IMG/VR virus record: IMGVR_UViG_3300037501_000255
DNA length: 64,000 nucleotides
Origin: a virus
Taxonomy: Duplodnaviria > Caudoviricetes
Direction: 5' to 3' (one strand)
Shown: positions 3,245 to 49,860 of the stretch, piece by piece
Numbering within the stretch: position 1 is the stretch's first letter
Layout: each line of letters starts with the position of its first letter
Translations under genes and position numbers: made by a program
The notes under the pieces: model-generated
Seen by the model: only the letters and a program-made list of their open reading frames with translations
Databases searched by the model: none
What the model was told of the DNA's origin: nothing

Positions 3245-6200
3245 TTAACAATATACTAGAATACCTATATTTCCTACCTGATTAGACGCGGCCGTGGACG
3301 ATATTGTTACAAAATATTCGCGATTAGGGGATACGTATGGGTTTTCAGTAGGAGGGGTGTAAGCCGTTGCTGTAATTTGGAGTGCGCCTGTGCCGACGTT
3401 TGACACGGCGCCTGATAGTGCTATGGCCGGCGTTCCTACACCTATGTCGCGCGCCCAGAGCTGTGCGGTTAACGAAGCGTTGACTGAGCAATTAGCATAA
3501 ATCGTGCATGATACTATAGTAGATCCTATCTGTAGATTATTAAGCGGCACGGCTAAACCCGAAGTGGTGCCTGAAGAGGTGAGGTAGCGCCCGCCTGTAT
3601 TTAGTGCCCACGCACTTGTTGCAAAGGCCCCAGAGCTAGTATTGTATGAAAGCCCGTCTAATGCAGAGTACATTTGAAGAAATTCTGCATTTTTGTTATT
3701 GATTATATATACATCTTTAGTAGAATTTGATAATATTTTTCTGGCGCCGGGCGCCGCTGTATTTCCTACTATATTGCCATTCACAGATATATTTGTGAGT
3801 AGCGAGCCGCTAATATTTATTGAGGCAGTGGTTGGTGATGATGCTGAGGCGTTTATTAAATTATTGTGTATGTGTGTAGAGTGTTTTTCATTAAGTATAA
3901 CATTGCCTGTTGATATGAGATTTGAGTTAAATGTATTTCCGTATATGTTAGTACGCGTACCCGTAGAGCTATGAGGTTCGAGATACATAAGATTTATACA
4001 TGGTGATCTTGGAGATATAATGTTTCCAGCAAATACAATATTGCCATCCCCCGACACTCTTATGCCGTTTTGAGGAGCGTATGTGTCAATAATGTTATCT
4101 GCTATTAGTGCAGTGTCCTGAGAAGTGCTAGAATAGTATAGCGATAGTGAATCAGGTGTGGCCGTGGATGTTGAACTTAGAACTATATAGTTATCTGTTA
4201 TGATATCCTTAGCTGCTACCGACAGTATACTCCATGCTCCTGCCGATATATAGTTTGAGCTTATTATAGCATTAAATGATTCTATTGAATGGTAGTCGCT
4301 TAATTCTACGTAGTTATTTTGAAATATAACGTCGTAATCACCCCCAATGGAAAGTGCAACATAATTATTGATGATGTTCGTATCTGCTAGAATCATATTG
4401 CCAGATATTGATGCCGGTCCGAGCGCCTTTAGCACATAACCGTCATGTTCCCATATAATATTATTTGAGAGTATAAGGCTAGAATCGACACCATTATAGT
4501 TGATAAGGTATCCGGATGATGACGGCGGCACAGAGCAATTTGTGAATATATTTCCAGATACGGTTATTGCTGGCGTATCGAGTATAAAAGAGTATTGCAA
4601 ATCTATAGTGTCTGCTGCAGATGTTATGTCATAGAATGTATTACCTATAATTGTGCAGGAATCTAACTTACTGCCTGCTCGCAGACATGCGCCCAGGCCG
4701 CCTGCATAATTACTCGCGAATGAGTTATTGTGCACTGCAATATATGTGTGTAGACTATTGATTCCGCTCGGTGCCAAATCAATTGCCCTGTCATAAATAG
4801 ACTTGAATGTATTTGACTCAACAACAAGTCCGTTGGTTTTATTTGCAAGTATTCCATTTGAACAATTTTCGAAAACACAATCAGAGATATGTGTATTTTC
4901 GATATTCATTGAAGTTGACGCAAATGATATACCAGTATAAAGGTTATTGAAGCGGACGTTTGTTATTGCCAGATCTGCTGATATCGCAGCGCCGGCGACC
5001 TTAATTCCTATTCTATTTGCATTTGCCCATGACCCAATTGTGCCGAGTCTAATTAATTGGCAGTCTCTTATTACATTTCTATTATAACCATGCTGAAGAG
5101 CTATAATTGATGCATTGCTGTTATTTGGCAATGATAGGGTAATATTTGATATGGTGTTGTACCCATCCTGAATCGAGATACACGGGTCTGTTGCGCCAGT
5201 AAAAACTATACTTGCATAATTATTTCCAATGATTGAAGAGTTGGAGCCAGTAATGATAACGCTGTCCAGGCTTGCAGATGAATTAATTTGCAATGTACAA
5301 TTTGAACCTAAAATAATTTGCCCTGTGACCGACAGTACCCCACCTACATTTAGCGTTGCGCCATCCTGCAGGGTAATTGACGTTGCTGCGGTGTTGCCTT
5401 TTATATTGACAATACTCCTCTGTCCAACCGATAGAGTTGTAAAAGTTGCATCACCTAAAAATTCCAGCAGTTTATCCGCGGCCGTTACAAGCGCGTCTGT
5501 AGCAGCATAATCCGAGGTTATGATAAGCTTCTGTGGCAAGGCCATAGCTGGATATGAGGCGTACAGCTGTGATGCCTGAATTGAGGCAAATGAAGCAGTC
5601 GTGGTTGCGCTCAATGTGGGAACATACTTGAATGGCAAACTATTTATGAAAAATCTAGCATCACTTACTGTAGATATATTTCCAGATAGTGTTGTGAATT
5701 GAGCGATAGCAATTCTCTTTCCTGAATTGACTATGTCGCTTAGAGAATATCCTGGATACGAATCATTAAATATCTCCAGTTTAGCATTCTCATTTATTGT
5801 AAGATTCCATGTTCCATCAGAAGCGATCTTATTAAAGACATCTATAGTTACTTCTGCAAAGTCTACTAGTTTACCGGCCACAAGCGCCCTGCCACCCGCA
5901 ATCGTCAGCTCCGTTGCTGAAATATCCGTGGTTGATAGCCCACGAATAACTCCGCCAACCAATATGTCTGCGCCATATGCCGTTGCAAATTCATGAATTG
6001 CAGCTGTTGATAGCTGCTCGGCACCCACGGTACCTCTCGGTGTTTTGTCGATTGGTATTGATACTACTAGGCCGCCATCAAAATATGTACTTGCCAGCTT
6101 CATTTGCGTATCATCTATTTCATTTGAATAAAACGCAATAGAGCTTGTTATGGCTATTAGTGACGCCGATGTTACCAGGCATGTTATGTAATTAATCCCG

Positions 6201-7954
6201 TCTGCGGCATATACTTTCACCAGACCAATAAAACCTGACGGGAACGTTGTGGCGGCGCCGACGGCAGCGTTTACCGTAAGCTGCAAAGAGTTGGTGGAGC
6301 CCGTTGTCAGCTGTAGGAGTCCTGTACCTGACGGAAAATTGTCACTGACTTCCAGAATATCTATGCCAGATATTGGGGCAAGGGTAACAACATAGCGATC
6401 TACCACAGACAATTGTAAATGTGAGTCTATGATGACATCTACTGACCGTGGATTGCTGCTCGCTCCAAGGTGGGCGGTGTCTCTGTAGATAATGCAGTCA
6501 AATGTTCCCGCAGCAACTGTAGTTGCTAGATTGATTTGAGTAGATGGCGGCGGCCCTACTGCCGATATGCTATAGGTTCCTGCTGCGGCGGAGCTTGAGT
6601 GATTAAAAATATGAACCAGGTTGCCGGGCTTGAGGTCAAGTCCTCCGGCTCCAACAAGTGTGTGGAGATTTAGGATGGACGATGGTGCACTGAGCGTAAT
6701 TGTTCCACTGTATACTGTCGCTAGGGCTGTGAATTGATATCCGTCAATATATGCCTGCGTACTTAGTAGATACGGCGCTGTAATATTGTCTATGTCAGTG
6801 AATCCAAATGCATACATTGCTGAATTTATAATTGGAGACTTGACTTTAACTGTACAATCTGGGCGGGCTATATTGTGCTGAATAACAATTTCCCCATCTC
6901 CAGCATCATATGCCTGCAGTGGGAAGTGGTTCGCTGTATTTGCAAAGCTAGCATTAAGGTGTTCTACTAGAGCCTTTACTGGAAATCTATCATTAGTCGT
7001 AGGATATTGCGCCGTGTGCAAACCAGTGACCGACAGTGTTCTTGTGCTTGTACCGATTTGCACTTCGAAATCCAAACTTTGAGCAGAGGGACTTAGAGCT
7101 AACGGATTTAGATTTCGTGTTTTAATCGAGGCCGCATTGATGTGCCCTATCTTGATCTGATCCCGTCCTGCCGTAGGCTGATATCTTGATGTGACAAGTG
7201 CTGCTGCAGAAGACCCCGCCTGTCCGCCATGAGCAGAATATCCGTCACTGATGACTCCATTGCCATGCGCAGAGTCATTATGTATTCTGCGATCTTCTTG
7301 ATATGCGGTATCAATCTGGGATATTGCTCCCTGTACGTCGGTAGCTGTAATTGGACTGTCTACGTCTGGAGCATACGAGATCGCAGATGCGGGATGCTGT
7401 CCTGTAGCTGAGCTGCTTTTATGTACAAGCAGTGCGTTATATATGAATTCTAGCGCCTGCCCTACCGTTGTAATGGATGGGGCGGATTCTAGGCCGCCGG
7501 CTATATCTATATGGTATCCGTCATGGCGCTGCGCTGTGCCACTAACATGGTTTGACAAGGTTACGACCAGCGCATTATACATGGACTGTAAATATGCAAT
7601 ATCTATATCATTTGATGATATTTGATTTTGCAGTGCCTGCGTACCCACATCCAGATCTAGCTTTGACTCGCTAATCGCGGCTGCGGAACCTATCATTGCA
7701 TTGGTGATGGGCAGTGCTATGAGTCCCGCCGCTACCAGCGCAGCGGCTTTAAAAGTACCGTCGGGATTTAGTGTCTGGTCAAGGCGCGTCGTCAGGTCAG
7801 CTGCTGAGCCATGAGGGTTTATTCCCAATGTGCGCTCAATAGCAAATATCGCATCGCGTAGGGCATTAATGTGCTCTGCTGCTAGTTCCGTAGCATTATC
7901 GGCGACTGGAATTAGTTCAGCGTTAGTATCTAGCTGCCCAGGGTATTTGCTCAA
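3245..7954 (-). CDS. Tailspike/fiber with N-terminal anchor domain and C-terminal right-handed beta-helix (possible depolymerase)
   Basis: 1569 aa, TTG start with SD GGTGA. The C-terminal half has repeated parallel beta-helix rungs (ISDCVFENC, VESNTFKS, IIGNTFYD, VSGNIFTN, FAGNIIS, IYGNTFN). 5 DGY. Confidence 0.75.
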   Translation of the reverse strand: MSKYPGQLDTNAELIPVADNATELAAEHINALRDAIFAIERTLGINPHGSAADLTTRLDQTLNPDGTFKAAALVAAGLIALPITNAMIGSAAAISESKLDLDVGTQALQNQISSNDIDIAYLQSMYNALVVTLSNHVSGTAQRHDGYHIDIAGGLESAPSITTVGQALEFIYNALLVHKSSSATGQHPASAISYAPDVDSPITATDVQGAISQIDTAYQEDRRIHNDSAHGNGVISDGYSAHGGQAGSSAAALVTSRYQPTAGRDQIKIGHINAASIKTRNLNPLALSPSAQSLDFEVQIGTSTRTLSVTGLHTAQYPTTNDRFPVKALVEHLNASFANTANHFPLQAYDAGDGEIVIQHNIARPDCTVKVKSPIINSAMYAFGFTDIDNITAPYLLSTQAYIDGYQFTALATVYSGTITLSAPSSILNLHTLVGAGGLDLKPGNLVHIFNHSSSAAAGTYSISAVGPPPSTQINLATTVAAGTFDCIIYRDTAHLGASSNPRSVDVIIDSHLQLSVVDRYVVTLAPISGIDILEVSDNFPSGTGLLQLTTGSTNSLQLTVNAAVGAATTFPSGFIGLVKVYAADGINYITCLVTSASLIAITSSIAFYSNEIDDTQMKLASTYFDGGLVVSIPIDKTPRGTVGAEQLSTAAIHEFATAYGADILVGGVIRGLSTTDISATELTIAGGRALVAGKLVDFAEVTIDVFNKIASDGTWNLTINENAKLEIFNDSYPGYSLSDIVNSGKRIAIAQFTTLSGNISTVSDARFFINSLPFKYVPTLSATTTASFASIQASQLYASYPAMALPQKLIITSDYAATDALVTAADKLLEFLGDATFTTLSVGQRSIVNIKGNTAATSITLQDGATLNVGGVLSVTGQIILGSNCTLQINSSASLDSVIITGSNSSIIGNNYASIVFTGATDPCISIQDGYNTISNITLSLPNNSNASIIALQHGYNRNVIRDCQLIRLGTIGSWANANRIGIKVAGAAISADLAITNVRFNNLYTGISFASTSMNIENTHISDCVFENCSNGILANKTNGLVVESNTFKSIYDRAIDLAPSGINSLHTYIAVHNNSFASNYAGGLGACLRAGSKLDSCTIIGNTFYDITSAADTIDLQYSFILDTPAITVSGNIFTNCSVPPSSSGYLINYNGVDSSLILSNNIIWEHDGYVLKALGPASISGNMILADTNIINNYVALSIGGDYDVIFQNNYVELSDYHSIESFNAIISSNYISAGAWSILSVAAKDIITDNYIVLSSTSTATPDSLSLYYSSTSQDTALIADNIIDTYAPQNGIRVSGDGNIVFAGNIISPRSPCINLMYLEPHSSTGTRTNIYGNTFNSNLISTGNVILNEKHSTHIHNNLINASASSPTTASINISGSLLTNISVNGNIVGNTAAPGARKILSNSTKDVYIINNKNAEFLQMYSALDGLSYNTSSGAFATSAWALNTGGRYLTSSGTTSGLAVPLNNLQIGSTIVSCTIYANCSVNASLTAQLWARDIGVGTPAIALSGAVSNVGTGALQITATAYTPPTENPYVSPNREYFVTISSTAASNQVGNIGILVYC

Positions 7955-44474: not shown

Positions 44475-45641
44475 TCAGGCTATGTCGAGCTCGTAGATCT
44501 TGGACCCGACCCCATACATTCTGTAAACACCTGCCTGTAAAGCAATCTCGCGCTCGCTTTTTTCTCCAGAAGCACGGTATTTGAATCTATGATACCTAGA
44601 TATTCCATCAGTATAGTAATAATCTGGTTTTGTATGGCCAACTTCGGAAAACCCACTAACCACATACACATTGCCAGTACCATAGCGCAAATCAGAATAT
44701 GACAGAATTTTTCTGTACCTTCCTGATAGCTCAGCCTTTACCGCCGCCAGTAGTTTACTAAACCCACCCATAACAGAGTGTCCTCGGAGCACTGCGAATC
44801 TTGCAATCTCAATAGTCTCTAAATACTTCTTGGTAAAAGGCTGTCGCATAGAGATTGCTGCGACGATCTGATCCGCATGCTGCAATCCCAGATAAAGCTG
44901 TCCGGCGGTATGTCCGGATATATGATTATATTTGAAAAATTCTGCTGCCGATTTGGCAGTTAGCGTAACCACATCACACCGCCTCGCCGCAATCTTCACC
45001 AGACCAGGCATGCCGGCCTTTGCAATAATCATAGACTTAATCAGATCTCTATTTGTGAGAAGCTCATCCATAAAAAACACAAGTGCTGTATATCCACCCT
45101 GTGCAGCTCTATAGAAATCTCTTGCTAAGAAACGGTACTGTGAGAAATATGTTGAGTTTGGAATTATGAGGATTATTGTCTGACCATTAGATACGATCCC
45201 GGTATCCTGGTCAAAATCAAAACCTATTTCATTAGCAAATTCGTTAATTATAGGCATATGTGCGGAGTAAAGACCAACCAAGCTTTTTAAAGTGCGGCAA
45301 ATATCTACCAGCTGCACTGCGGCGGCGTCAATGGACCGAATCTCCCTAATCACACGCCGTGCCCGACCAGCACGACTTAGAGAGTATGCCGCTCGACTCC
45401 TTCTGTTAGAATTAATCTCTGACGGATCTATAAATCTCCGCAGCACGCGACTAACAGTCATCTTATTACTAAAGATTATGTCGGGATGCGACGAAATCTG
45501 TTCGACAGTAAGCCCCGACCTATACAGGTCAACGCACATCCGCTCATTCCTCAAATACTCGGAATGATGGTGGACTCGCACATGCTTTGAAATGTACACA
45601 GATTGCTTTCCACAAATACGACACACTACACTCGCCTCCAC
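44475..45641 (-). CDS. Hef-like homing-endonuclease-family protein (Zn finger + HTH + degenerate nuclease + GNAT-like domain)
   Basis: GTG start at 45641 with SD GGAGG. CRIC...H..H finger. C-terminal IAARRC...NHISG...EIARF...GGFSKLL...SYSDLRYGTGNVY...GF matches the phage Hef-like pattern. Confidence 0.7.
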   Translation of the reverse strand: MEASVVCRICGKQSVYISKHVRVHHHSEYLRNERMCVDLYRSGLTVEQISSHPDIIFSNKMTVSRVLRRFIDPSEINSNRRSRAAYSLSRAGRARRVIREIRSIDAAAVQLVDICRTLKSLVGLYSAHMPIINEFANEIGFDFDQDTGIVSNGQTIILIIPNSTYFSQYRFLARDFYRAAQGGYTALVFFMDELLTNRDLIKSMIIAKAGMPGLVKIAARRCDVVTLTAKSAAEFFKYNHISGHTAGQLYLGLQHADQIVAAISMRQPFTKKYLETIEIARFAVLRGHSVMGGFSKLLAAVKAELSGRYRKILSYSDLRYGTGNVYVVSGFSEVGHTKPDYYYTDGISRYHRFKYRASGEKSEREIALQAGVYRMYGVGSKIYELDIA

Positions 45642-46684
45642 GTATATCCTCCATGGCTTTTTCTCCGTCCCAGACAACAAAGAGAAACTTTGTTAGGCAT
45701 AAATCCATCCAATAACGTAGATGCAGTATCAGGGTACTCCTTCTGCTCGCCCGTCTCAATAGACGTTCCAATTACCCGGCCTTTACTACGCTGCGGAGCA
45801 ACAAGTGACTGGCTGAGAGGAGAATCTCCCCACTCCCAAAAACAGCCTTTATGCGTGCGGCGCGTGCCCTCACAGCACGAAATGACATTCCCTACCGAGT
45901 AACCGTCGCCAGAGACGGCAGATACCATTGGATACAGAAATACAGTACCATCCGAACAAGATATTCTGCGGACACACCTCCCGCTGACCTTTCGACGCCT
46001 TGGCGCCTTTTTAGGCACAACGGCACTAGAAATTTCATTATTGAAACTCCATAAATAACCATTATGAGATTTAAGCTGCGACCGACAGCACGCATACACA
46101 CTGCTATATGTGGCTCCCGGCGTGTTACGCACGGCCGCAGAGATGCTGTCAAAAATGCACTGGTTACCACCATCTAAATCACTTCTAATTATACTACAAG
46201 ATATCCTAGTAGTTATAAACTTTGGACTTGTACCATCAGCAAATTGCCACAAGTACCCGCGATGACTTGCCATATGTCCATGGCAGCACGCCGTAATACT
46301 ACCCTCGTTAAACCCTTCTAGGGCCGCTAAGTCACGCGTAGCGAATTCTACAGATTCGCCGGTTTTCATATCGATACGAACAATAGGCCTATTCGGCGGC
46401 GGATTAGGAGCATTAACGTCTTTAGATATATTGTATTCAGGCTGAATAGTATCTATATAGAACTGCTCGAGATCAAAAAGATTGGTTGTATCACACTGCT
46501 CAATAACTTCAAACACAAAAGCACTGGGACCGTATTTTTCCCATGCAGATTGAAGATACCTTGAGTGATGCTTGCCGTTCCGCAAATCGCGCCTGTGGCA
46601 TTGCCACCTAGATTTTATGTTGTTAGACGAGCCTATGTAGCAATGTCCAGATAATACATTGTATATTATATAGATGCCAATCAC
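45626..46684 (-). CDS. Free-standing GIY-YIG homing endonuclease with NUMOD1-like repeats
   Basis: GIYIIYN...CYIGSS...RW..H...L...H...LQSAWEKYG...FEVIE, followed by four repeats ending CC.G...SH.GY.W. Confidence 0.93.
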   Translation of the reverse strand: MIGIYIIYNVLSGHCYIGSSNNIKSRWQCHRRDLRNGKHHSRYLQSAWEKYGPSAFVFEVIEQCDTTNLFDLEQFYIDTIQPEYNISKDVNAPNPPPNRPIVRIDMKTGESVEFATRDLAALEGFNEGSITACCHGHMASHRGYLWQFADGTSPKFITTRISCSIIRSDLDGGNQCIFDSISAAVRNTPGATYSSVYACCRSQLKSHNGYLWSFNNEISSAVVPKKAPRRRKVSGRCVRRISCSDGTVFLYPMVSAVSGDGYSVGNVISCCEGTRRTHKGCFWEWGDSPLSQSLVAPQRSKGRVIGTSIETGEQKEYPDTASTLLDGFMPNKVSLCCLGRRKSHGGYTWRRV

Positions 46685-46816: not shown

Positions 46817-49800
46817 TCAGCCGGATGTGACGCTCTTACGACCAGCGGCAACACCACGCGGGTTAAGCACGCTGACACCGATAATTTCGCTCACAACCCA
46901 TCCCAACATCAGACGTTTTGGTTCATCAGCCGGAAGTGTCTCGATGTCCTGGCGAACTGGCATGACACCAACGAATTCCGGATCAGCGCAGGCGAAGACG
47001 GTACCCGGGGTAACGATCTTGCTCACGATGATATCGGCTCCGAAGATGCGGCCGTAAAGACCGGTCTGGAGAATTTCGCGGTGGGTTACCGGATCCACAT
47101 CGGCAACGCCAGCACCGTTCTGTGAGGACCACATACGGATGTCGTTTAGCTCGAAAATGTTCATGAAGAACTTCGTGGTTACGAGGTCCCAACGATCAAC
47201 CTGTGTAGCGATCTCAACGAGGTCGCGACGGGTTAGACCGCCATCAATAATATCCTGAGCGGTGTTTTCACCACCGAGTGAGGCGTCAGCAGCGAAATCA
47301 AGCGCTGCGAAAACGTTTGCGTCTTCTTGAGCTTGGCAGCTCTGTTAATCTCCAATCGCTTGGAGTGTCGGACTATACCTTCTGCTATTTTGTAGCAGCA
47401 CCATTTGTAGTCTCTGAGGGGACTAGTTTATACAACATACTAGGAACAACAATATTCCTTAACATGTCTGAAAGTTGCACGGAAGATTTCCTATCAAACG
47501 CAATTTCGTAACTAACTTCATTAGCAGTTGTGCGTTTTGAAATCCACGTCTTTAGCCCAAACTTGCGATTCAACATATCTCTTAATGCATTGACCTCATC
47601 TTTTGTAAATGAGTTTGTGTATAAGATATTTCGTTTGCAAGTACCTGTCAGCGAGCCATCATCCTGCAACCATACTGCTAAAGATATGATGTTAAAGTGT
47701 TCATTTATGAAATTCATATCTAAACTCTTTTTACCATTCTTATAAAATGCATGATATAATTGAAAGAATGCTGGGTGACTAACTGTGCTAAATGTGTATG
47801 AGTGATATACTTTATCGCCATTTCGATGTTGAGCTTGTCTTGGATATTTATTTGGATCCGGCAACCAATCCTTTAATGCCTCAAAGAGCCAAAATAAGTA
47901 CTCGCGATGTTTCGCTGACTGCTCAATTATTAATGACGGGTAAGTTTGAGAACCATCTCTAAGTCTAAGGTGACCATCGCCTAGTAAAAGACCAACAATA
48001 AGATTAACCTCTTGCTCGTCTAGTCTGGCTTTCGGATGACGCTCATACTGCTCGATTGCCTTAATCAAATACTTATTTCTAAGTCTGTGAACTTGTCCGA
48101 GTGTTAAGTCGAACTTGTCGGCAATTTCGCTATCTGAAAACTTCTTTACAACATATAGTTCGTGAAGTTTTTCGTAAGAAAGTATATCTTCAACCTTCAT
48201 TTTATCTATCCCCTGCTGATTGTCCCATACTGTTTAGATTTTTACTCGATTTATCGGTACTAAACAGCTTCGAGGATTTCCAGCATAACCTGGTATTTTA
48301 ACGGAGACCCAAGGTCAGTTGATCTCCTGGCGAGCCTTCTGAACGGCACGGTCAATAACATTGAACCGGCGCATCTTGACTTCGCGAATGCGCACAACCG
48401 GGTTCGAAACGATTTCGAATTCCGGAACGTGTACGCGGTCGCCGCGAACTTGTGACTCTGGTGCTGAACCGTTGGCGGAAACAACAACAGCGGCCACGTC
48501 GATATCGCGGTCATAAACAGCTAGCGCTCCGTTTGGTACAAAATGTTACTCTCTTTTCAGAGGGGCTAGTCATTTCTGCCAGCCTCTGCATATCGCTATG
48601 CAGGTCAGACTATATCACCTTCTACTTTGTAGAAGCTTCGCATGTAGTCGTTGAGGAACGGTTCATGATTTTATATTGCATAGATGGTATTACGAAATCT
48701 CTCACTATATCCGATATAATCTGCGTATTTCTTTTATTGAAAGATAGGAAGTAGTACTTCTTTTTATTCCTAGTATATTCACGCACATTACCATTTACAT
48801 TGAAGTTAATTTTGATTGCCTGTAACAATCTCATATTTTCTTTTAGTGTAAATGAATCGGTTTGCAATCTTAAGTTGACACCTTTATTTAAGGAGCCATC
48901 ATCCATAATCCAAACTGCAAGAGCAGGGGGAGTGAGCCACATTTCGATTTCATTAGGAACTATCTTAACAGAGTTCCTATAAAACACATCTCTTAGAACA
49001 TTAAACTCAATATGTGTTATCGTATTGAATTCAGTGTACTCAAATCCGGTCCTGGGGTCAATCCTATTCCGAAGCTCGAGGCTTATTGGAGTAAGTTGTT
49101 CATGTAACCATTTAGATAATTCGTTCTGCTTTTTACAGTGCGATATCATCAACCTGGCTAGGCGACCATGTTTAGCTATATGGCCATCCCCAAGCATTGT
49201 GCCCCAAACCAATTCCTTTTGAAATCTGGTTAATTGCACTTTTTTACGCATTTCAAAATTGCGCTTAGCATGATTTCTATCAATGCCAAGTTTTTTTAAT
49301 TTGCGTAGGACAGAAGATTTGTTTACGTTAAAGTGGTTCGCAATCTTACGACTGGACCAGCGCTGATTAACGTAGAGTTCGATCAACTCATTCTCTGCTA
49401 TCATTTTACCTTTCCTGCTGATTGTCTGCATCGTCAACTGATTTTCACTTACTCTTTTAAGCGATCCCGAGCGCAGTGCCACGAGATATATGTTTGAGTC
49501 AGTACAGTTGAATTCCCAGAGTTTCCAGCATACAGCGAAATTTTCCTGAGGGTTAGCTCAGGCCGCTACCATTAACGGGTCAACAACGAGCGCACGGCGA
49601 GCAACACCTTGATAATCAAGGTTGCGACGGATCGGGAGAGCCATCGCTTGGCCGAGAGCAATCTTGCCTTCAGTCGTCTGAAGAGCGCGCTTAACCATGT
49701 CGTCCTTCTGCTGTTCAGTGTAGGACGGCTTGCCAGCTAGGGACTGGTTCGCGCTCATATGGTTCTGAATAACACTTGCATACTTGGCAAGGTTAGAGAC

Positions 49801-49860
49801 TGCATCTGCAACGGACGTCGCATTCATCTCTCCCTTGTCATTAAAAAGACCTGTAGTCAT
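46817..49860 (-). CDS. Major capsid protein (HK97 fold), join(49575-49860, 48322-48538, 46817-47336), 340 aa after splicing
   Basis: Exon lengths 286+217+520=1023 nt join in frame: ...ARRALVVDP|LPNGALAVYDRD...QKARQE|IQAQEDANVFAAL...GRIFGADIIVSK...IIGVSVLNPRGV. SD AGGAG. Typical HK97-fold MCP motifs. Confidence 0.93.
47337..48321 (-). mobile_element. Group I intron 2 in the major capsid gene (985 nt)
   Basis: P1 GGAGAU/GUCUCC (U.G wobble); P10 CUUGG/CCAAG; P3 ACCA/UGGU; P4 UGCUG/CAGCA; P5 extension CUGUUUAG/CUAAACAG; P7 GACUA/UAGUC; P9 CUCCAA/UUGGAG; terminal G at 47337. Confidence 0.95.
47385..48200 (-). CDS. Intron-encoded HTH-LAGLIDADG endonuclease (intron 2)
   Basis: HTH SDSEIADKFDLTLGQVHRLR. 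Motifs LIVGLLLGDG and LAVWLQDDG. Confidence 0.92.
   Translation of the reverse strand: MKVEDILSYEKLHELYVVKKFSDSEIADKFDLTLGQVHRLRNKYLIKAIEQYERHPKARLDEQEVNLIVGLLLGDGHLRLRDGSQTYPSLIIEQSAKHREYLFWLFEALKDWLPDPNKYPRQAQHRNGDKVYHSYTFSTVSHPAFFQLYHAFYKNGKKSLDMNFINEHFNIISLAVWLQDDGSLTGTCKRNILYTNSFTKDEVNALRDMLNRKFGLKTWISKRTTANEVSYEIAFDRKSSVQLSDMLRNIVVPSMLYKLVPSETTNGAATK
48539..49574 (-). mobile_element. Group I intron 1 in the major capsid gene (1036 nt)
   Basis: Exon ends in U (CCGU) and pairs with IGS GCGG (U.G wobble). P10 UGGUA/UACCA; P2 CUGAG/CUCAG; P3 UUUCGC/GCGAAG; P4 UGCUG/CAGCA; P7 GACUA/UAGUC; P9 hairpins; terminal G at 48539. Confidence 0.95.
48622..49404 (-). CDS. Intron-encoded HTH-LAGLIDADG endonuclease (intron 1)
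   Basis: Start MIAENE at 49404, just after P4'/P6. HTH SSRKIANHFNVNKSSVLRKLKKLG. Motifs LVWGTMLGDG and LAVWIMDDG. The ORF runs through P7. Confidence 0.92.
   Translation of the reverse strand: MIAENELIELYVNQRWSSRKIANHFNVNKSSVLRKLKKLGIDRNHAKRNFEMRKKVQLTRFQKELVWGTMLGDGHIAKHGRLARLMISHCKKQNELSKWLHEQLTPISLELRNRIDPRTGFEYTEFNTITHIEFNVLRDVFYRNSVKIVPNEIEMWLTPPALAVWIMDDGSLNKGVNLRLQTDSFTLKENMRLLQAIKINFNVNGNVREYTRNKKKYYFLSFNKRNTQIISDIVRDFVIPSMQYKIMNRSSTTTCEASTK

Follow-up and report, generated by a model that had tools for sequence, protein, structure and literature searches.

Two predicted group I introns with LAGLIDADG endonuclease genes in the major capsid gene of an uncultured phage related to Bacillus phage G

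Group I introns have been described in the major capsid genes of the lactococcal phage Tuc2009 and the mycobacteriophage LittleE, and the splicing of the LittleE intron, whose open reading frame (ORF) is LAGLIDADG-related, was proven by reverse transcription PCR (PMC3706429). Several introns within a single phage gene are likewise on record: orf142 of Twort has three (as cited in PMC6669764), AR9 and MarsHill possess multi-intron genes (bioRxiv 10.1101/2020.12.14.422802), and the terL gene of Jug phage contains several group I introns (PMC12880540). Neither a capsid gene nor a LAGLIDADG enzyme in each intron figures in these multi-intron reports on Twort, AR9, MarsHill and Jug, the first of them as far as the citing paper relates it. 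The usual enzymes of phage introns are, according to a 2014 review, of the GIY-YIG, HNH, PD-(D/E)xK and EDxHD types, and intron ORFs can extend into the ribozyme core (PMC3984707). Here we analyse IMG/VR record IMGVR_UViG_3300037501_000255, a 64,000-nt stretch of DNA (the window) from an uncultured freshwater phage related to Bacillus phage G. Its major capsid gene very probably carries two independent mobile group I introns that are both lost from the late pre-mRNA and spread by homing, each with a gene for an I-SceI-type helix-turn-helix (HTH)-LAGLIDADG endonuclease in its P6 loop.

The minus-strand segment 49860-46817 holds, in the ORF list, three fragments of the capsid gene and two internal ORFs of 286 and 271 amino acids. 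When the three exons (49860-49575, 48538-48322 and 47336-46817) are joined, they make 1023 nt, that is, 340 codons and a stop. They match PHROG 2522 (major head protein, 318 positions) in order, exon 1 corresponding to positions 11-85, exon 2 to 89-159 and exon 3 to 163-317, and the conceptual product aligns with gp27 of Bacillus phage G at 52% identity (E = 4e-102), ungapped at both junctions (VVDPL followed by PNGAL against VVDPLPQGAL in gp27 at junction 1; ARQEI followed by QAQED against AKADIMAVED at junction 2). Exon 3 also matches PDB 6wkk, a phage G gp27 chain (E = 2e-38). This full-length collinear homology identifies the predicted joined product as a major capsid protein of the gp27 type with the HK97 fold. 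An interpretation made earlier from the letters of the window (the sequence-only reading) had seen a capsid gene in three fragments, with two introns 217 nt apart, and had predicted a 340-residue protein upon removal of 48539-49574 and 47337-48321; the ORF list together with PHROG 2522 bears out the former claim, and the ungapped alignment to gp27 agrees with the latter. The G+C content is 54% in the exons and 38-39% in the introns. A megablast search of the region against GenBank phages returned no match. In phage G itself (NC_023719.1; L001) the capsid gene is uninterrupted.

The boundaries of the two inserts can be read from natural alleles. Scanning IMG/VR with exon 3 yielded 80 loci, most of them with an uninterrupted capsid gene. 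One locus without either intron (L002) encodes a protein 94% identical at the amino acid level to the joined capsid protein, and its DNA aligns to 49925-49576, 48536-48322 and 47335-46835, the matching coordinates in L002 being contiguous (5429-5781, 5785-5999 and 6001-6501) and the identity of exon 2 to 5785-5999 reaching 86.5% at the nucleotide level. Because this alignment breaks at both boundaries, the inserts are exactly 49574-48539 and 48321-47337. From the DNA comparison alone each junction could slide by 1 nt, since the first base of each intron equals the first base of the next exon, and only with the boundaries given here does a U precede the 5′ splice site and the intron end in G. 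The predicted spliced joins are GACCCGT followed by TACCAAAC for intron 1 and GGAGAT followed by CCAAGCT for intron 2. The P1 and P10 guide pairings from which the sequence-only reading had derived exact junctions are present as it quoted them, and L002 fixes the boundaries independently. Skipping of exon 2, with exon 1 joined to exon 3, was considered and rejected: the frame would shift, and the P10 guide of intron 1 mismatches exon 3.

The same comparison shows that the introns come and go among close relatives. Intron 1 is absent from L004, where a homologue of intron 2 occupies the site of that intron (80.7% nucleotide identity over 48536-46815), and L228 resembles L004 in carrying such a homologue there; exon identity with L002 and L004 is 83-87%. 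Introns occupy the same two sites in L114/L116 as in the window. On a 39-kb contig from the same sample, a related phage diverges exactly at 48322 and continues into exon-3-like coding sequence; the site of intron 2 is intronless in this phage, so potential homing targets coexist with the phage studied here. Such variation in intron presence at identical positions between close relatives, combined with endonuclease genes that appear intact, marks these elements as predicted mobile introns. The insertion sites in the capsid gene (codons 76/77, 96 and 168) lie at the 89th to 98th percentile of capsid conservation, as is expected for homing sites.

Both introns have a U.G pair in P1 at the 5′ splice site and a G as the last base, and a core comprising P3-P8 with the P3/P7 pseudoknot can be located in each (Table 1). 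The conserved elements are P UAUGCUGGAAA, Q GACAAUCAGCAGG, R GACUACA and S AUAUAGUC / GUAUAGUC. P7 is GACUA/UAGUC in both introns, and the window, in which 0.23 occurrences of the motif pair GACTA...ATAGTC are expected, has it at these two sites and nowhere else. P2, P9.1 and P9.2 are absent from intron 2. In both introns 3 nt separate the 5′ strand of P7 from the 3′ strand of P3, which means that P7.1 and P7.2 are missing and that neither intron is of the T4 IA2 type; the P5 extension, the lack of P7.1/P7.2 and the difference from IA2 had all been proposed by the sequence-only reading and hold. Subgroup IA2 is said to have been defined, by Michel and Westhof in 1990, by P7.1 and P7.2 lying between these two strands. 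The two elements are mentioned in the 2014 review (PMC3984707).

Table 1. Coordinates of the predicted capsid-gene exons, introns, ribozyme helices, endonuclease genes and neighbouring genes in the window.
Feature	Coordinates	Strand	Details
Capsid exon 1	49575..49860	-	286 nt; ATG at 49860; last base U of CCGU
Group I intron 1 (predicted)	48539..49574	-	1036 nt; terminal G 48539
Intron 1 P1	49578-49575 / 49566-49563		CCGU/GCGG
Intron 1 P10	49571-49567 / 48538-48534		UGGUA/UACCA
Intron 1 P2	49562-49545
Intron 1 P3	49540-49535 / 48641-48636		UUUCGC/GCGAAG; 6/6 pairs
Intron 1 P4	49530-49525 / 49421-49416
Intron 1 P5 and extension	49520-49425		arm between P and Q 98 nt
Intron 1 P6	49416-49412 / 48658-48654		AGGAA/UUCCU
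Intron 1 P7	48649-48645 / 48612-48608
Intron 1 P8	48635-48619
Intron 1 P9	48603-48586		GCGA loop
Intron 1 P9.1	48584-48564
Intron 1 P9.2	48562-48551
Endonuclease gene 1 (putative)	48622..49404	-	HTH and double-motif LAGLIDADG; 260 aa from ATG 49404 (likely start)
Capsid exon 2	48322..48538	-	217 nt
Group I intron 2 (predicted)	47337..48321	-	985 nt; terminal G 47337
Intron 2 P1	48327-48322 / 48308-48303		GGAGAU/GUCUCC
Intron 2 P10	48313-48309 / 47336-47332		CUUGG/CCAAG
Intron 2 P3	48295-48291 / 47403-47399		UACCA/UGGUG; 5/6 pairs
Intron 2 P4	48285-48280 / 48219-48214
Intron 2 P5 and extension	48276-48223		arm between P and Q 55 nt
Intron 2 P6	48214-48209 / 47422-47417		AGGGGA/UCCCCU
Intron 2 P7	47412-47408 / 47375-47371
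Intron 2 P8	47398-47382
Intron 2 P9	47365-47350		GCGA loop
Endonuclease gene 2 (putative)	47385..48200	-	HTH and double-motif LAGLIDADG; 271 aa
Capsid exon 3	46817..47336	-	520 nt including stop
Free-standing GIY-YIG endonuclease gene	45626-46684	-	I-HmuI NUMOD-like C-terminus; Pfam E 8.5e-11, 1.9e-11
401-aa ORF	44475-45680	-	overlaps the end of the GIY-YIG gene; conserved in L002 and L004

Rfam at its gathering threshold finds no match in the whole 64-kb window. Under relaxed settings RF00028 recognizes the 3′ core only, in intron 1 at 48586-48786 (27.5 bits, E = 3e-4) and in intron 2 with 20.2 bits (E = 0.048); these low scores arise because about 765-800 nt inserted into the P6 loop break the model. 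A blastn search with the 5′ domain of intron 1 against GenBank phages gave no match. Relatives were sought in IMG/VR with a P...Q core pattern taken from the two introns, which returned 171 distinct introns, 120 of them with a recognizable R/S pair (45 ORF-less and 75 that have an insert in the corresponding position). Twelve ORF-less relatives with the same P/Q/R/S elements score 59-82 bits against the full RF00028 model. With its ORF excised, the core of intron 1 is 72% identical to the ORF-less L147 and L127 (about 75 bits), and that of intron 2 is up to 73% identical to the ORF-less L237 and L232; both excised cores are about 70% identical to relatives scoring 82 bits, the range over the ORF-less relatives being 69-73%.

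Across the 120 relatives P3 has on average 4.65 of 6 pairs, compared with 3.31 ± 0.08 when the 3′ strands are permuted, and it forms 69 perfect helices among 87 distinct duplexes (e.g. UUUGGC/GCCAAA, UUCCAC/GUGGAA and CUGUAC/GUACAG). P5 pairs alternate between UA and CG among relatives of both length classes, the fourth pair of P6 is retained in 73 of 80 (versus 41.5 ± 3.2), P8 and P9 are hairpins in at least 110 distinct sequences, and the L9 loop is GNRA in at least 89 of the 120. The distal P5a/P5b arms are too variable for MAFFT/RNAalifold. A third related intron, at capsid codon 76/77 (L006-L009), has each of its pairings re-fitted to its own exons, with P7 GAGUA/UAUUC, P1 CCCU/GGGG and P10 UGGAU/AUCCG in L008. 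A covariation count for P1 anchored on the intron start TAATGG was dropped, as it gave only six instances. The covariation of P3, P5 and P6 across the 120 relatives supports the predicted core. The check by covariance models that the sequence-only reading had envisaged thus has a divided outcome: RF00028 stays below threshold on the window itself, and P3-P8 gain support through the covariation of relatives and the Rfam matches of ORF-less ones.

The proteins encoded by the two inserts match Pfam LAGLIDADG_2 (PF03161) above cutoff (E = 1e-37 for endonuclease 1 and 2e-36 for endonuclease 2). The two proteins share just 31% identity, which means that neither intron is a recent copy of the other. 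Endonuclease 2 aligns with I-SceI (PDB 3oor, E = 1.6e-18) at both catalytic Asp positions, the motifs LGDGH and DDGS being aligned to those of I-SceI, and among 38 aligned relatives D168 never varies and D73 is kept in at least 90%. All 38 relatives match LAGLIDADG_2, and 18 of them match HTH_23 (best E = 9e-10), which supports an N-terminal HTH also in the window's own two proteins, where it is sub-threshold. An AlphaFold model of endonuclease 1 (predicted local distance difference test, pLDDT, 93.6), in which the last ~15 residues are the sole low-confidence part, has three short helices at its N-terminus, then a linker helix, and a core with the double alpha-beta-beta-alpha-beta-beta-alpha fold, and its best matches among solved folds are I-WcaI and I-SceI (template modelling score 0.72-0.77). 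With two acidic motifs on one chain and a predicted double fold, both proteins classify as putative LAGLIDADG_2 enzymes of the I-SceI type. The frame of endonuclease 1 is open back to GTG 49482; ATG 49404, with AGGAAAGG standing 8 nt upstream, is the likelier start. Relatives of endonuclease 1 occur in only 13 of 50,697 GenBank phage records, all at 28% identity or less.

Both endonuclease ORFs are situated inside the P6 loop. The sequence-only reading had correctly named an HTH-LAGLIDADG ORF that reads through P7, yet had placed it after P6 rather than within the P6 loop. The 5′ strand of P6 (AGGAA in intron 1, AGGGGA in intron 2) precedes the start codon and doubles as a Shine-Dalgarno-like sequence, and at the other end the last 12-13 codons contain the 3′ strand of P6, J6/7, the 5′ strand of P7, the 3′ strand of P3 and P8, the stop codon falling within the 3′ strand of P8 in both introns. 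The two proteins share the C-terminal pattern ..TT..A.TK because the R element dictates it, and in most ORF-bearing relatives the ORF likewise ends a few bases past R. The exon frames meet stops early in the introns, at TGA 49560-49558 in intron 1 (15-17 nt in) and at 48317-48315 in intron 2 (counted as 7-9 nt in).

A mechanism can be proposed from these features. The late pre-mRNA would lose both introns to give the 340-residue HK97-type capsid protein, the internal guide of each intron pairing with the end of the upstream exon (P1, with the U.G wobble at the cleavage site) and also with the five bases that open the downstream exon (P10). Guanosine bound in P7 would start the first step, and the terminal G would serve the second. 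The early stops in the exon frames may keep ribosomes translating the exons out of the core. Since core helices themselves serve as the ribosome site and as the end of the ORF, translation of the endonuclease and folding of the ribozyme are expected to be mutually exclusive. The endonucleases, in turn, would cut intronless capsid alleles of the L002 type in co-infecting relatives at highly conserved sites, and repair of the cut allele would copy the intron in.

Several points weigh against this interpretation. P1 of intron 1 has only four pairs, and P3 of intron 2 has one mismatch. Both introns of the window remain below the 50-bit gathering score of RF00028. The relatives that display the covariation were found by a pattern drawn from these very introns, and P4, invariant by design, proves nothing. 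Cleavage by either endonuclease is a prediction from sequence. A search of sequencing runs for the window found one DNA run (a freshwater metagenome), with no RNA run listed; the contigs of that run contain no joints across either intron, contigs being unable to show RNA splicing.

Some of these weaknesses would suit genuine group I introns that self-splice inefficiently and need a protein cofactor, either their own LAGLIDADG protein acting as a maturase or a host RNA chaperone. The short P1 of intron 1 and the minimal build of intron 2, without P2 and P9.1/P9.2, are consistent with this idea, and LAGLIDADG maturases exist: the bI3 maturase and I-AniI are among the fold matches of endonuclease 1, and the protein of the Thermotoga 23S intron is discussed as such a maturase (PMC3984707). 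We nevertheless consider a cofactor requirement unlikely, as I-SceI and I-WcaI, which are pure endonucleases, lead the maturases by a wide margin among both the fold and the sequence matches, and as 45 of the 120 relatives are ORF-less yet reside in coding genes, from which it follows that ribozymes of this family need not encode a protein in order to function.

Much less probable still is that the inserts are decayed and non-splicing, or the product of an assembly error, with the capsid gene a pseudogene of a defective phage. Splicing has indeed been deduced from sequence, and the sub-threshold Rfam scores would fit decay, but all core elements are intact, both endonuclease ORFs are of full length with their catalytic Asp residues, and the exons are in frame and closely match those of the intact relative L002. 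Moreover, L004, which comes from an independent sample, has intron 2 at the identical site, another contig (L114/L116) has introns at both sites, and a second assembly of the run contains the whole window with 0 differences, although it perhaps derives from the same reads. That the inserts are inteins, or free-standing endonuclease genes dividing the capsid protein into three separately translated polypeptides, is scarcely credible: T4-like phages do have endonuclease-split genes whose halves function as separate chains, and a free-standing GIY-YIG gene lies directly downstream, but the exon frames run into stops within a few codons of entering each insert, each endonuclease ORF begins at a start of its own, exons 2 and 3 lack a start codon or ribosome site at their 5′ ends, and ribozyme cores flank each ORF.

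The reading as two mobile group I introns can be extended to the wider set in IMG/VR. When the flanks of the 171 related introns are searched with a hidden Markov model of the capsid family, 53 of the introns fall in this same family, clustered at codons ~76/77 (19 cases), 95-99 (17), 167 (4) and 252 (3) with a few elsewhere; as the search started from introns and favours their kin, these proportions are not unbiased. The lineage repeatedly invades one capsid gene family. Capsid introns account for 44 of the 48 distinct I-SceI-like endonucleases, and the endonuclease tree clusters by insertion site, with 11 label changes against a shuffled mean of 24.6, the site labels being partly unreliable since, in genes where an ORF-less intron stands ~60 nt upstream of an ORF-bearing one, a label may be that of the neighbouring intron. 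Individual site switches of endonucleases are for this reason not claimed. We give an even chance to the broader proposition of an undescribed group I lineage with I-SceI-like HTH-LAGLIDADG genes that radiated in the phage-G-type capsid gene of uncultured large phages, at seven or more conserved sites (around codons 76, 88, 96, 168, 176, 252 and 265) and with up to three introns per gene, its endonuclease clades tracking the sites. If so, the capsid gene would be a battleground, and the endonucleases could be weapons against intronless co-infecting relatives.

The arrangement in the window is not unique, as other capsid genes carry two or three introns (L114/L116, L084/L104); the remark of the sequence-only reading that group I introns are known in phage structural genes accords with LittleE and Tuc2009 (PMC3706429). 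L084 and L104 (IMGVR_UViG_3300033121_002131) have three capsid introns at codons ~78, 96 and 251, and L125 has two, at codons ~96 and 251. Two introns only ~55-60 nt apart are seen in L127, L147, L132, L148 and L157, where a micro-exon of ~20 codons lies between capsid codons 77 and 96 and the upstream intron is ORF-less. In L172-L175, L181 and ~45 other loci the introns carry a smaller ORF of 160-220 aa that phmmer does not relate to the I-SceI type, and some of these introns have a LAGLIDADG-like motif directly after Q. The endolysin gene of phage G is annotated as two joined pieces (L001, 19865-21534), and a P...Q-like core with one mismatch is found at 243202 (L279, 243202-243293).

Directly downstream of the capsid gene of the window lies the free-standing GIY-YIG gene. 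L002 is syntenic there (69% nucleotide identity), and because this intronless relative is syntenic through the region, the GIY-YIG gene is older than the introns. The 401-aa ORF that follows has no Pfam match at E 0.001.

Annotation pipelines would report three capsid fragments at such a locus and overlook the protein, and the exact junctions restore the predicted 340-residue product. The locus would also illustrate cleanly how a ribozyme core can encode the tail of a protein. The wider distribution, in which one capsid family has about a third of the 171 related introns, may further provide a natural system for studying target-site shifts of homing endonucleases within one conserved gene. LAGLIDADG enzymes of the present kind would add to the repertoire of capsid-gene introns, being absent from the list of usual phage-intron enzymes (PMC3984707).

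Among well-known phage introns, those in td, nrdB and nrdD of T4 resemble the present ones in their location in essential genes, an early in-frame stop, mobility by homing (predicted for the present introns) and an endonuclease ORF in a peripheral loop. In the T4 td intron, this ORF is situated in P6a. Unlike the T4 IA2 introns, the introns described here lack P7.1/P7.2 and have a P5 extension of 55-98 nt, and their putative endonucleases are LAGLIDADG proteins, whereas the T4 enzymes are of the GIY-YIG or HNH type. The capsid genes of LittleE and Tuc2009 contain one intron each, in contrast to two here, and the LittleE ORF (177 aa, I-CreI-like) is on the opposite strand (PMC3706429), whereas the predicted enzymes of the window are I-SceI-like double-motif proteins encoded on the same strand and overlapping the core. 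Twort, AR9, MarsHill and Jug are alike in having group I introns close together in one phage gene. The omega intron of the yeast mitochondrial large subunit rRNA gene, with I-SceI, offers the same enzyme family and a monomeric double-motif enzyme in a group I intron, but the gene it interrupts codes for an organellar rRNA and not for a phage protein, and the phage proteins differ from I-SceI by an added N-terminal HTH unit of ~55 aa. Gp210 of the jumbo phage PhiPA3, an intron-encoded endonuclease, cuts an essential gene of a co-infecting relative (PMC11620839); its enzyme family and target gene differ from those considered here, for which a competitive role is conjecture. Capsid-gene introns and multi-intron phage genes are thus already part of the published record, and what sets the present introns apart is an enzyme family uncommon in cultured phages.

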